Assembly: GCA_050633305.1 (NCBI GenBank)
Contig: JBOEGF010000018.1
Span: 96,001 to 160,000, forward strand
Direction of reading: 5' to 3'
From: Nannocystales bacterium
Lineage (GTDB): Bacteria > Myxococcota_A > Polyangia > Nannocystales > Nannocystaceae
DNA: 64,000 nt
A program made the translations under genes and the position numbers. Shown piece after piece: positions 31,477-36,756 of the stretch. The notes beneath the pieces are model-generated. The model ran no database searches and was not told where the DNA came from. It was given only the letters and a program-made list of their open reading frames with translations. Position 1 is the first letter of the stretch. Each line of letters starts with the position of its first letter.

Positions 31477-31505
31477 TTGACGATGTCCTGAGGCGGCACT
31501 AAACC
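31477..31505 (+). promoter_or_regulatory. Candidate sigma70 promoter
   Basis: TTGACG-17 nt-TAAACC, A-tract upstream; predicted start about 31512-31513 coincides with leader ATG. Confidence 0.55.
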
Positions 31506-31512
31506 CCAGTCC

Positions 31513-31599
31513 ATGTCGAGGCCAGCCAACACGTCCGAGTTCGGACGCAAGAACCACCCGCGCCGCCTTGGATGCGATGTGGTGGAGATGCTGGTCTAG
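31513..31599 (+). CDS. Candidate 28-aa attenuator leader peptide MSRPANTSEFGRKNHPRRLGCDVVEMLV
   Basis: ATG 31513, TAG 31597-31599; stop overlaps 5' strand of antiterminator. Confidence 0.55.
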   Translation: MSRPANTSEFGRKNHPRRLGCDVVEMLV

Positions 31600-31675
31600 C
31601 GGCTTGCCTGTCTCGTGGGGTCATTCCCACGCCTGAGACTCCGGTAGCCGCCCGACATCGTCGAGGCGGCTTTTT
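31599..31675 (+). terminator. Terminator (31646-31675) with overlapping antiterminator (31599-31651)
   Basis: AGCCGCC-CGAC-ATC-GTCG-A-GGCGGC-TTTTT; GCGGC-T-TGCC (31599-31608) pairs GGTA-GCCGC (31643-31651) around GTCTC/GAGAC and GTGGG/CCCAC. Confidence 0.75.
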
Positions 31676-31700
31676 CGTGTCCCCGACGAACCTGATCTCC

Positions 31701-31804
31701 GGCGCTCCCCATCGCACGGGCCGCACACGCCCGGCCTACAGCCAACTGCCTGTCACGCAGTCGTCCTGAAAAGACGATCAAACGGCCCGTGCACTCGGGA
31801 GCCC
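31701..31804 (+). ncRNA. Array unit 0: scaffold RNA carrying tandem anticodon stem-loops Asp(GUC) and Phe(GAA)
   Basis: GCTCCC/GGGAGC, CATC/ACTC loop, GCACGGGCCG/CGGCCCGTGC; ACTGC-CTGTCAC-GCAGT and TCGTC-CTGAAAA-GACGA. Confidence 0.75.
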
Positions 31805-31849
31805 ACCTTTCCCCTCGGCCGAGACTCCGTATGGAGTGGCCAAGTTCTC

Positions 31850-31990
31850 TTCGCGTCCAACGAGGAAGCCCAACACGCAACTACGCGGGTTCGATCCCCG
31901 CACTCAAACCAAAAAAGCAGAGGTCATGCCCGGTGGACGGGCGTCCGGCAGGAAGCCGGATCGACAATGGCTTCATCACTCGGACGCGAA
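31850..31990 (+). ncRNA. Array unit 1: scaffold RNA with degenerate permuted tRNA (T arm, D-like arm, GGA loop)
   Basis: TTCGCGTCC/GGACGCGAA; CAACACGCAAC; GCGGG-TTCGATC-CCCGC; GCCC-GGTGGAC-GGGC; TCCGG-CAGGAAG-CCGGA. Confidence 0.75.
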
Positions 31991-31999
31991 ACCAACTTC

Positions 32000-34571: not shown

Positions 34572-34576
34572 GGCCG

Positions 34577-35488
34577 ATGGACTACCGCAAGTTCCTCGGT
34601 GCCCAAGCCACGAAGGTGCTGCCGTACTTCGGCGGCCCCTTCGTCCATGCCCCCGATCGGCGGCTCCGCGTAACGCAACGCGTCGCCGCCGGTTGGTGGG
34701 ATTTCGAGATCAAGGGGCGCAACGCCACCGCTACGGCGCAGGCCGAGCCCCCCTCGTTGCATCGCTGCAAGAGCCTCCGCGGACACATCGTCGGCGATTG
34801 GTTGTTTGTGGGAGGCGAGAGGACTCGGCGCATCCTGCTGATGCCCGAGGACGAACCCCCGGTATTGTCACCGGTCACGGCACGTCTGTGGCATGGCGAT
34901 GCTCCGATCTTCGACGTCCTCGAGTTCGAAGGGGACGTTGAGGAGGCCGCACGAGACGCATTGCTCGAGGGAATCGCGATCGCCGACCTCGCGGGCGCGA
35001 CGCCCGGTCTTCGACGCGCGTTTGGCTTTGCTCGTCTCCAGCGTGAGGCGCAGGGCCGAGGGCTTCATGTCTCGGCGCGTGAGGTGGGGGCAGTCCTGCA
35101 CGAGGTTGCCGATGGCACCCGAGTGCCGGCCACGGTCTTGGACATGCTCGAGGCCCGGGTCTACACGCTCGACCCAAGCTCGGCTCATCGAGAGCGGAGC
35201 CCGACTCGAGGTGGAACGATGGAAGATGCACCGCAACGAGCCGCGTCTGCGCTCGAAGGGGCAGGGGCCACCCTGCTCGACACGCGTTTTGCGGGTGAGC
35301 AGACCATGGAGGTGATCTTTCGCTATCTCGGCGAGCGCTTCGTCGCGACCGTCGACTGGGAGACGCTCCACGTTTACGACTCGGGCATTTGCCTGGACGG
35401 TGCCGACGAGGAACTTGGTCTCCATGCGCTTCCCTCCGTCATCTCCGAAGCCATCGATGGCGATCTCCTCTACATCACGCGGCGGTGA
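34577..35488 (+). CDS. Uncharacterised operon protein, candidate E2-like C-terminal domain (303 aa)
   Basis: ATG 5 bp after vWA stop; LHVYDSGICLDG followed by helix LHALPSVISEAI; gene is secure, E2 assignment speculative. Confidence 0.65.
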   Translation: MDYRKFLGAQATKVLPYFGGPFVHAPDRRLRVTQRVAAGWWDFEIKGRNATATAQAEPPSLHRCKSLRGHIVGDWLFVGGERTRRILLMPEDEPPVLSPVTARLWHGDAPIFDVLEFEGDVEEAARDALLEGIAIADLAGATPGLRRAFGFARLQREAQGRGLHVSAREVGAVLHEVADGTRVPATVLDMLEARVYTLDPSSAHRERSPTRGGTMEDAPQRAASALEGAGATLLDTRFAGEQTMEVIFRYLGERFVATVDWETLHVYDSGICLDGADEELGLHALPSVISEAIDGDLLYITRR

Positions 35489-35545
35489 GCCGCTGCGGGG
35501 GACCTCTTGGCTCGCTCGCCCCCGCCTTCATCCAAGGGCTCTGTC

Positions 35546-35917
35546 ATGCTGCGCGAAGTTTGTTTCTTCATCGGTGCGTCCGATGCCGTGCTGTGGAGCG
35601 ACGCTTCGCAGAGTCCGACGGCGCTGCCCGATTCTCGGGCCCGTTGGGATGCCATCTGGTCCCGCCGGGCCCGCATCGTCGAGATCGTCCACACGCACCC
35701 GTTGGGAGGCGCGAAGTTCTCTCTCGAAGACGAGACGACGATGGCGGCGTTGGACACGGCGCTTGGCCGCCGCCTCCAGTACGCGGTCGTCACACCCACG
35801 AACATGCTCCGCCGAATTCCCGGCGAAGACCCTGAACAACCCGACGAGCACATCGTCGAAGCCGAGCCCTGGTGGACCTCCTTGATCCGGTCTGCCTCGG
35901 GCCTGACCTCTCCATGA
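35546..35917 (+). CDS. JAB/MPN+ (JAMM) metallo-isopeptidase
   Basis: N-terminal Glu (MLRE) and exact H-x-H-x7-S-x2-D motif HTHPLGGAKFSLED. Confidence 0.88.
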   Translation: MLREVCFFIGASDAVLWSDASQSPTALPDSRARWDAIWSRRARIVEIVHTHPLGGAKFSLEDETTMAALDTALGRRLQYAVVTPTNMLRRIPGEDPEQPDEHIVEAEPWWTSLIRSASGLTSP

Positions 35918-35931
35918 AAGGAGACTGAACC

Positions 35932-36174
35932 ATGGCCATTCTCAACATCACCTACAACGGTCTCTCGGTCGACTACAAGGCGACCGTCGCGGACAACATG
36001 CGTGACGGAGATATCCGCCGCACCGCGATCGAGCTCATCCGCAGCGGTCAACTCCGTGGCCTCCACATCGCGCACCTTCCCGAAGACGCGTTTCGTGACT
36101 ACGTGGTCGATCGCCTGCCTACCGCCGGTGGTGCTCGGATCTACCTGCGTCCCAAGGTGCCGTTCGGCAGCTGA
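35932..36174 (+). CDS. Ubiquitin-like (beta-grasp) protein with C-terminal Gly plus one-residue extension
   Basis: 80 aa, strong RBS AGGAG, strand-strand-helix pattern, ends IYLRPKVPFG-S, between JAB and E1. Confidence 0.75.
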   Translation: MAILNITYNGLSVDYKATVADNMRDGDIRRTAIELIRSGQLRGLHIAHLPEDAFRDYVVDRLPTAGGARIYLRPKVPFGS

Positions 36175-36183
36175 GGTGCTTCC

Positions 36184-36756
36184 ATGCGCGTCGTGATCTG
36201 CGGAGTGGGAGCCCTGGGGTCGGCGGTCGCCGTGGCGTGTCGAAATCTCGATGTGTCGCTGCGGCTGGTCGACTTCGATCGCGTGGAGTCGAAGAACCTG
36301 CTGTCTCAGGCCTTCGTCAAACAATCGGTTGGCAAGAACAAGGCCCAGGCGCTGAAGATGCAGCTGCAGAACTTCTACGGCGTGAAGGTCGAAGCCAAAG
36401 GGGTTCGGCTGGCGGCCGGCAACGTGTCGGAACTCCTTGGAGGGGCTGGCCTGGTGTTGGACTGCTTCGACAACGCGGCGAGCCGGCAGCTGATCTGTGA
36501 GTACGTCCGGGAGAGCGACATCCCGTGTCTGCATGGGGCGCTCTCCGCGGACGGGACGTACGGGATGGTTCGCTGGGACGAAGCGTTTGCTCCCGACGCC
36601 GAAGACGCGGCGGGACAGGCGACGTGCGAAAACGGCGACCACCTGCCGTTCATCAGCATGGTCTCCGCCGTTCTCGCCCGAACAGCCTCGGAGTTCGTCC
36701 AGGACGGATCTCGGCTCAATGCCATGGTCAGTCTCTCGGGCGTTCAAAGATCGTGA
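36184..36756 (+). CDS. Minimal E1/ThiF-family adenylyltransferase
   Basis: ICGVGALGS, DFDRVESKNLLSQ, GKNKA, DCFDN..SR; no CxxC pairs; candidate catalytic Cys in GQATCE. Confidence 0.92.
   Translation: MRVVICGVGALGSAVAVACRNLDVSLRLVDFDRVESKNLLSQAFVKQSVGKNKAQALKMQLQNFYGVKVEAKGVRLAAGNVSELLGGAGLVLDCFDNAASRQLICEYVRESDIPCLHGALSADGTYGMVRWDEAFAPDAEDAAGQATCENGDHLPFISMVSAVLARTASEFVQDGSRLNAMVSLSGVQRS

Follow-up and report, generated by a model that had tools for sequence, protein, structure and literature searches.

In bacteria, Ro60/Y-RNA particles have mostly been described next to enzymes of RNA repair or decay. In Chen 2014 (PMC4201824), YrlA RNAs are described as bearing a 5′ GNCGAAN0-1G motif and a YUAY sequence before the V region, multiple YrlA RNAs are reported per locus, and the search was confined to genomes with an annotated TROVE protein; of six myxobacterial names looked up in its supplementary table, only Plesiocystis and Sorangium are listed with canonical Ro60/YrlA. 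Here, we analysed a 64,000-nucleotide stretch of DNA from a Nannocystales bacterium (assembly GCA_050633305.1, contig JBOEGF010000018.1, positions 96,001 to 160,000 of the forward strand; hereafter the window), in which a gene for a vWA protein with a Ro60-like predicted fold is preceded by six Y-like RNA modules and followed by genes for a protein with an invariant cysteine (hereafter the Cys protein), a JAB/JAMM metallopeptidase, a candidate ubiquitin-like (Ubl) protein, and a minimal E1-like adenylating enzyme. We give about an even chance to the reading that this locus encodes a divergent Ro60/YrlA-type ribonucleoprotein (RNP) with a Ubl conjugation cassette as its linked effector.

As in the rsr-yrlBA-rtcBA locus of Salmonella (PMC4201824), the gene for a ring-plus-vWA protein adjoins small RNAs on the same strand, and as in YrlA, a stem carries a permuted tRNA-like domain (i.e., T arm, closed acceptor stem, and D arm) and a YUAY sequence is present. 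Unlike Ro60 (Rsr), however, the window protein is not recognised by the TROVE profile, and unlike YrlA, the window RNAs score below the Rfam threshold. Moreover, most modules keep a complete anticodon arm, so that the Y stem enters at the variable-loop position and not at the anticodon stem. The partner genes also differ from those of the rsr operon, as they encode an E1, a Ubl, a JAB, and the Cys protein instead of RtcB/RtcA. With the Rsr–Y RNA–PNPase machine of Deinococcus radiodurans (PMC4201824), the locus would share the idea of a Y RNA that tethers a Ro60 ring to an effector enzyme, although the genetically linked effector candidates here are Ubl-conjugation enzymes and not an exoribonuclease.

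The second set of close relatives consists of the prokaryotic Ubl operons (i.e., types 6A–6E of Iyer, Burroughs and Aravind 2006, PMC1779556; Bil/Bub, PMC10557695 and PMC11601596; and CBASS Cap2/Cap3). Like these, the locus unites in one operon a JAMM peptidase, a ThiF-type E1 in which a Cys is conserved, a small protein whose C-terminal Gly is followed by a removable tail, and a further Cys protein. In contrast to these operons, the E1 is a bare 190-aa protein, there is no detectable Prok-E2, and there is no mobile-element context; the curated system models of Bil, CBASS Cap2-Cap3, and 6A-MBL fit only part of the E1. The terms vWA, TROVE, and Myxococcus are absent from the main text of PMC1779556, PMC10557695, and PMC11601596, and the vWA-MoxR systems with Ubl cassettes of Kaur et al. 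2020 have another architecture, with "trove" occurring only in a reference title.

No description of a Ro60-like/Y-RNA pairing with a Ubl cassette was found in the literature searched, which left out Burroughs and Aravind 2016 (NAR 44:8525) and the 2020 Annual Review on bacterial Ro60, nor did that literature contain a paper with both "YrlA" and "ubiquitin". The original prediction, made from the sequence of the window, had put the locus forward as a candidate new system. This is supported for the pairing but not for the presence of several RNAs, since several Y RNAs beside Ro60 are already known (Chen 2014). The Y-RNA array is thus not new in kind, whereas the clade of Ro-like proteins appears to be new, as does the pairing of this clade with Ubl enzymes. 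Since the TROVE profile does not detect the clade, surveys built on that annotation (cf. Chen 2014) would have missed it.

The Ro60-like protein and its RNA modules

The resemblance of the vWA protein to Ro60 is one of predicted fold and not of sequence. Pfam assigned the protein to VWA_2 only, and its AlphaFold model (predicted local distance difference test, pLDDT, of 80.6) consists of a helical ring-type N-terminal part followed by a C-terminal vWA domain. When this model was searched with Foldseek, ranks 1–10 were all taken by TROVE/Ro60 entries (E 4e-8 to 1.2e-6, over 471–575 columns), while VIA returned a Z of 15.0 for 9kop (412 aa) and of 13.6–13.7 for 1yvp, 2i91, and 9nep (423–437 aa). 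Full-length structural matches were obtained with Ro60/TROVE entries only, so that the Ro60-like protein announced in the original prediction is borne out by Foldseek and VIA at the level of the predicted fold. The metal-ion-dependent adhesion site (MIDAS) is intact, with D391, S393, S395, T454, and D483 invariant in 20/20 sequences. A profile of 20 members searched against the PDB found only vWA chains, and no TROVE match was present in the organism's own genome (92% complete). Between Nannocystaceae, Polyangiaceae, and Myxococcus records, the Ro-like protein is 64–70% identical.

All six RNA modules are located at most 1.2 kb upstream of the Ro-like gene and on its strand (within the 4 kb expected of a YrlA RNA), and they are built on a common frame that comprises an outer helix, an internal loop with an AAUCG-like sequence on its 5′ side and CACUC on its 3′ side, an inner helix with GCC/GGC at its end, the conserved tract CCYUACACGC, and a variable insert. 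It is in this insert that the modules differ. Modules 3 and 5 each form a complete cloverleaf with its opening at the variable-loop position, module 3 being made up of a T arm, a closed acceptor, a D arm, an anticodon arm (loop CUCUUAA), and an extra hairpin, while in module 4 the Y stem enters via the anticodon-stem position. T and D arms are both present in only four of the six window modules (3, 4, 5, and 6). The six scaffolded tRNA-mimic RNAs of the original prediction are therefore six as far as the scaffold is concerned, but only four with regard to the tRNA-like domain.

At gathering thresholds, Rfam reported two weak tRNA matches in the array, and a permissive scan with the YrlA family (RF02553) matched 32670–32759 (42.7 bits) and 32270–32379 (39.3 bits). 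As ARAGORN called no tRNA anywhere in the window, ordinary tRNA genes were discarded as an explanation for the modules. Two copies of a 73-nt hairpin element, forming a 93% identical direct repeat with a strong fold, are inserted between modules 3 and 4 and between modules 5 and 6. The array has the appearance of a two-module unit (~390 nt) that was duplicated. The 73-nt element has two copies in the 11-Mb genome, both inside the array, which ruled out a genome-wide repeat element.

The RNA structure was assessed in a MAFFT alignment of 24 modules (A6), composed of 22 of the 48 distinct matches to a scaffold descriptor and two window modules that the descriptor had missed. The choice fell on modules whose tRNA-like inserts were of comparable length, so that those with plain hairpins contribute too little to the resulting covariation count. 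RNAalifold recovered six helices in this alignment (i.e., outer, inner, T arm, closed acceptor hairpin, D arm, and anticodon-like arm), with compensatory (two-sided) change in 27 of the 34 pairs. Paired cells amounted to 96.3%, vs. 73.2% in column shuffles (none of 500 shuffles reached the observed value) and 29–44% when the partners were slid.

A covariance model built from the same 24 modules (R1) gave five strong hits in the 11-Mb genome (68.6–122 bits), all of them inside the array, and four weak hits (at most 45 bits) that correspond to tandem true tRNA genes (on contigs C47, C10, and C13). Across the window and 49 related loci, R1 matched 108 times, always on the strand of the gene, and at least one match was present in 43 of the 49 loci. 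The six loci that were missed are L009, L014, L029, L030, L032, and L044, two of which have no more than 521 nt of upstream DNA. The scaffold descriptor yielded five matches on both strands of the 11-Mb genome, four of which were in the array; the fifth (C18:768231-768426) was taken as a chance match since it lacks tRNA features. In the 49 loci, the descriptor matched 44 times in the 74 kb upstream of the vWA gene vs. once in the 1.08 Mb elsewhere, with at least one match in 32 of the 48 loci that have at least 300 nt of upstream DNA. The array thus accompanies most of the homologous operons (43 of 49 loci), a check that the original prediction had proposed, and its tRNA mimics are YrlA-like RNAs on a conserved scaffold whose helices are backed by covariation.

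Within this scaffold, copy number per locus ranges from one to six between lineages, with one or two copies in Myxococcus and six in the window. The YUAY sequence is found as CUAC in nearly all copies, and the 5′ loop reads GCCGA in Myxococcus and AAUCG or AACCG in the window. A 7-nt anticodon-like loop is present in 43 of the 63 strong modules (from 31 sources), and 35 retain U33 and a purine at position 37. Near-identical orthologous modules differ in the triplet of this loop (i.e., CTT/CTT/GTT/ATA in one set and TGG/TGA/CGG in another), a difference that may be due to selection or just to drift in the loop.

In records of Myxococcus, Pyxidicoccus, Corallococcus, and Cystobacter, the DNA directly upstream of the Ro-like gene contains a gene for a calcineurin-like phosphoesterase (~235 aa) with a Y-like RNA copy on either side (e.g., L011:4722-5733, and at the same place in L010-L028, L039, L025, and L026). 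The only such gene in the window's genome is 29% identical and located elsewhere.

The linked Ubl-type cassette and its co-inheritance

The JAB, Ubl, and E1 that the original prediction had named in the cassette were all recovered, the JAB and the E1 with intact catalytic motifs and the Ubl as a candidate. The JAB matches Pfam Prok-JAB at 7.1e-6, and in its JAMM motif H62, H64, S72, and D75 are invariant in 16/16 sequences while E17 is nearly invariant (90% or more). The 80-aa candidate Ubl ends in an invariant RPKxPFG followed by 0–13 variable residues (21/21 sequences); it belongs to no Pfam family, has no sequence-profile match in the PDB, and matched only unnamed myxobacterial clusters in the ESM Atlas. 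The E1 is a bare 190-aa adenylation domain (Pfam ThiF, 2.8e-22), in which GxGxxG, D30/D32, K37, K53, D93/D96, and Cys148 are invariant in 18/18 sequences. Its score with the NCBIfam 6A-MBL cap2_3 model was 43 bits against a cut-off of 320, and PADLOC matched it to E1-E2 models over the adenylation domain only, with no match for the other four proteins of the operon. A complex prediction with two copies of the E1, the Ubl, and residues 205–303 of the Cys protein scored 0.00, which gives no verdict and is evidence for nothing.

The Cys protein was modelled (pLDDT 86) as two OB-like barrels, a helical linker, and a C-terminal domain with the predicted topology of helix, 4-strand meander, Cys loop, and helix. 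Cys272, located in a DxGxCL motif, is invariant across the family. No Pfam family was assigned to the protein, its sequence profile retrieved nothing from the PDB, and the ESM Atlas contained no usable match. Searched by structure, the model had no Foldseek match at E 0.001 or better, and a wide VIA search returned nothing above Z 5.8, with OB proteins at Z ~5. Judging from this model, a minimal E2 is possible.

The two parts of the locus, placed in one operon by the original prediction, are inherited together. In the fetched DNA of the 49 loci, tblastn detected the Cys protein in 47, the JAB in 42, the Ubl in 27, and the E1 in 25. Where the E1 lay outside the fetched DNA, a 56–60% identical E1 was present in all four such genomes examined, and the copies that could be placed (in three of these four genomes) were 6–9 kb downstream on the same strand. 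Moreover, in a sample of 301 genomes of the phylum, the Ro-like gene occurred in nine (two of them partial), the Cys-protein gene in eight, and the Ubl gene in six, always adjacent and in the same genomes; one of these three counts was made under a stricter filter and is a lower bound. None of the three genes was ever found alone in this sample. The three sampled genomes of the window's own family all lacked the Ro-like gene. Canonical TROVE genes were present in 25 of the 301 genomes, and none of the five operon proteins was encoded within 8 kb on either side of the 12 canonical TROVE loci inspected.

Several further observations concern these relatives. The full system is also present in L049 and L047, which are labelled as an Actinomycetota and a Pseudomonadota metagenome-assembled genome, respectively, reflecting either transfer or mis-binning. 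At two loci of a paralogous family (L032:2268-2609, and L033:5792-5864 and 9824-9965), tRNA-like genes of ordinary order are located upstream; the one in L032 contains a CCUACACGCAA tract inside its variable region, and L033 has a Y-like module downstream of the E1. Finally, four canonical TROVE loci from other Myxococcota (L064, L067, L073, and L074) adjoin very large tRNA gene arrays, with 27, 37, 12, and 8 tRNA genes, respectively, called by ARAGORN within 8 kb on either side.

Layout of the unit and its leader region

The elements listed in Table 1 all lie on the + strand and make up a single co-oriented unit (31477–36794), consisting of a promoter-like box, a leader open reading frame (ORF), a hairpin, six RNA modules, and five genes. 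Both the bounding of this unit by hairpins and the short spacing of its genes, which the original prediction had put at 5–57 bp, agree with what was measured (successive gaps of 5, 18–57, 14, and 9 nt). The RNA modules and the genes would be co-transcribed. Since the 12-bp GC hairpin that closes the unit is not followed by a long U run, its function as a terminator is putative.

Table 1. Features of the co-oriented unit, in window positions
Feature	Position	Strand	Basis
Promoter-like box, TTGACG / 17 nt / TAAACC	31477..31505	+	read from sequence; 6/6 close relatives
Leader ORF, 28 codons	31513..31599	+	ATG at 31513; open in 6/6 relatives
Terminator-like hairpin (GCCGCCCGAC...GUCGAGGCGGC) + U5	31647..31675	+	fold; conserved in relatives
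Y-like RNA module 1: scaffold with three plain hairpins, without tRNA features	31701..31805	+	R1 39.6 bits; fold z -4.5
Y-like RNA module 2: scaffold, T-arm-like hairpin plus further hairpins	31850..31990	+	R1 68.6 bits
Y-like RNA module 3: full permuted cloverleaf	32001..32151	+	R1 122 bits; Rfam tRNA 33.3 bits at 32071-32134
73-nt hairpin element, copy 1	32169..32241	+	direct repeat, fold
Y-like RNA module 4: canonical YrlA layout	32255..32391	+	R1 107.4 bits; Rfam YrlA 39.3 bits
Y-like RNA module 5: full permuted cloverleaf with UUUGGGA as anticodon-like loop	32402..32544	+	R1 121 bits
73-nt hairpin element, copy 2	32559..32631	+	direct repeat
Y-like RNA module 6: canonical YrlA layout, then U-rich run	32641..32772	+	R1 89.7 bits; Rfam YrlA 42.7 bits
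Ro60-like vWA protein, 581 aa	32826..34571	+	ORF, Pfam VWA_2, predicted fold
Cys protein, 303 aa, two OB-like barrels	34577..35488	+	ORF, predicted model
JAB/JAMM metallopeptidase	35507..35917, start possibly 35546	+	Pfam Prok-JAB
Candidate ubiquitin-like protein, 80 aa	35932..36174	+	ORF, invariant C-terminal Gly
Minimal E1-like adenylating enzyme, 190 aa	36184..36756	+	Pfam ThiF
Closing hairpin, 12-bp, GC (putative terminator)	36767..36794	+	sequence and fold

In the promoter-like box, the TTGACG (31477–31482) and TAAACC (31500–31505) hexamers are kept with identical spacing in 6/6 close relatives examined. A generic consensus scanner reported no promoter-like site in 31200–37000 and a single terminator-like site on the opposite strand. 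The ATG of the leader ORF is located only 7 nt past the –10-like hexamer, so that the transcript is possibly leaderless. In 6/6 relatives, an ORF of 25–29 codons remains open at the same place while its peptide varies. The terminator-like hairpin further downstream (31647–31670, with the U run at 31671–75) has a 3′ arm that could alternatively pair with codons 17–24 of the leader ORF (31562–31583). By blastn, the leader DNA is kept in L001, L002, and L005, and the hairpin additionally in L006, L008, and L031. The promoter and leader/attenuator that the original prediction had placed before the array thus find their counterpart in a box, an ORF, and a terminator-like hairpin that recur in 6/6 relatives, which makes that label a reasonable one for the region 5′ of the array; attenuation through the leader ORF would be the corresponding regulatory logic.

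The unit is flanked by an OmpA-family gene (ending at 31326) and an M8-peptidase gene, and the window DNA as a whole is GC-rich and myxobacterial, with proteins whose nearest relatives are labelled Nannocystaceae or Myxococcota. Just past the M8-peptidase gene, a 1227-aa ORF on the – strand (38264–41947) resembles a Ser/Thr protein kinase at its start and then runs on as a long helical region.

Proposed mechanism, rival explanations and significance

In the reading that we favour, i.e., a divergent Ro60/YrlA-type RNP with a Ubl conjugation cassette as linked effector, the two-helix scaffold with its internal loop and CCYUACACGC tract would be the docking site of the Ro60-shaped vWA protein, and the variable caps, most of which are circularly permuted tRNA look-alikes, would offer some partner a tRNA-like surface. 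The 80-aa protein would lose its short tail to the JAMM peptidase, which would expose the invariant C-terminal Gly for adenylation by the minimal E1, and the activated protein would probably be held on Cys148. From there, it would move to Cys272 of the OB-domain protein, to be transferred to a protein that is part of the RNP or located at it. The binding of RNA by the Ro-like protein, whose gene adjoins the modules on the same strand, the E2 role of the Cys protein, the conjugation of a protein, and the target of this conjugation are all put forward as parts of the same proposal. As human Ro60–Y RNA particles associate with the E3 ligase Ro52/TRIM21, a Ro60 RNP joined with ubiquitin-type tagging would have an analogy there, although an analogy only that implies no homology of the tagging enzymes.

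A number of observations weigh against this reading. On the protein side, the vWA protein had no match to Pfam TROVE (PF05731) at E up to 0.1, an hhalign comparison with nine canonical myxobacterial Ro60 proteins gave a probability of 1.5% (E 0.035), and the template modelling scores (TM-scores) to TROVE/Ro60 entries were only 0.34–0.54. With regard to the RNA, the two best YrlA scores (42.7 and 39.3 bits) do not reach the gathering score of 69 of RF02553, and raw-read RNA-seq at the Myxococcus xanthus locus (L011; one run) was flat, with a depth of ~20–65 on both strands and no peak or ends at the RNA, so that this data set is uninformative on expression; three further RNA-seq runs available as contigs are flat by construction. 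In the cassette, the candidate Ubl ends in FG and not GG, none of the 24 members of the Cys-protein family has a Prok-E2 Pfam family, and the match of the Cys protein to Ubc9 reached only Z 4.6 (rank 42 of the list). Finally, the nearest solved relatives of the E1 are the sulfur-transfer proteins MoeB (5.4e-14), Uba4, and ThiF, and the tRNA-modifying TcdA.

These E1 relatives also favour a sulfur relay instead of tagging, in which the E1 would turn the 80-aa carrier into a thiocarboxylate (as in TtuB/TtuC, SAMP/UbaA, and Urm1/Uba4), the Cys protein would help to thiolate the tRNA-like RNAs or RNP-held tRNAs, and the JAB would mature or recycle the carrier. As in the TtuB/TtuC/JAMM system of Thermus, archaeal SAMP/UbaA, and Urm1/Uba4, an E1, a Ubl, and a JAMM peptidase are linked to tRNA-shaped RNA, and the best NCBIfam matches of the E1 are ThiF/MoeB models, although all below their cut-offs. 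Moreover, the modules bear T arms and anticodon-like loops, i.e., the sites that are thiolated in real tRNAs, and the Cys protein has no recognisable E2 family. However, known sulfur carriers (of the ThiS/MoaD type as well as TtuB, SAMP, and Urm1) end in GG, which the FG of the 80-aa protein does not match. TtuB, SAMP, and Urm1 also work with PP-loop thiolases and sulfurtransferases, which are absent from this operon, as Pfam found no rhodanese, cysteine desulfurase, or PP-loop thiolase domain in its five proteins. The Cys protein is in addition predicted to consist of OB barrels and a small alpha/beta domain and not of a thiouridylase fold, and we consider a sulfur relay unlikely. The original prediction had instead proposed immunity by decoy and tagging under translation stress, in which tRNA-cutting toxins or phage factors would be lured by the different anticodon arms of the array, and either the attacker or the RNP itself would be tagged with the Ubl once binding or cleavage had occurred at the RNP. 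This fits with the frequent anticodon-like loops with U33 and a purine at position 37, the differing triplets of near-identical orthologous modules, the variable copy number, and the patchy distribution of the system (9/301 genomes of the phylum and 0/3 of the same family). PADLOC, however, found nothing but partial E1 matches, neither a defence context nor a mobile-element context that would point to an immune role is present at the locus, no toxin or phage link was seen, and the neighbours of the unit (OmpA-family and M8-peptidase genes) are ordinary and syntenic in close relatives. Likewise, the variation in the loops may be drift at unconstrained positions, and the 64–70% identity of the Ro-like protein across classes looks like purifying and not like arms-race selection. 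The mechanism proposed in the original prediction is therefore possible but unsupported, and we rate its probability as low. The same low rating applies to the form in which a Ro60-like ring would carry anticodon-arm decoys to keep watch for tRNA-targeting toxins or phage factors, and in which Ubl tagging, with the OB-domain protein as an E2-like enzyme, would be set off when a decoy is attacked. If true, the locus would encode a bacterial immune sensor in which an RNP guides ubiquitin-like tagging, and which would foreshadow the Ro60/Ro52 pairing in function.

Two further explanations question the particle or its link to the cassette. The modules might form a cis-acting regulatory 5′ untranslated region that senses tRNA-binding factors, and not stable trans-acting Y RNAs, given that the last module ends 54 nt from the start codon of the Ro-like gene with no separate promoter seen in between, that a leader ORF and a terminator-like hairpin precede the array, and that all modules are co-oriented with the genes. 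This is very unlikely in our estimate, as modules are located 3–5 kb upstream past other genes in L025, L026, L046, and L048 and downstream of the E1 in L033, many copies close with their own basal stem and U run, and the scaffold resembles known protein-bound Y RNAs. Alternatively, the RNP and the Ubl cassette might be independent systems that stand side by side by chance, and unrelated genes (for DUF2267 and a GMC oxidoreductase) indeed split the JAB from the Ubl and E1 in Myxococcus and relatives. Nevertheless, the complete co-occurrence in the 301-genome sample, in which no part stood alone, the retention of Ubl and E1 in the 39%-identical paralogous family (L032 and L033), and the lack of the cassette at canonical Ro60 loci make a chance neighbourhood highly improbable.

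If the Ubl cassette is indeed the linked effector of a Ro60/YrlA-type RNP, this linkage would tie RNA surveillance to protein tagging in bacteria, and the tRNA mimic would gain a testable enzymatic partner. The presence of the system in Myxococcus xanthus places it in a genetically tractable organism, in which deletions, tagged proteins, and small-RNA work are at hand.

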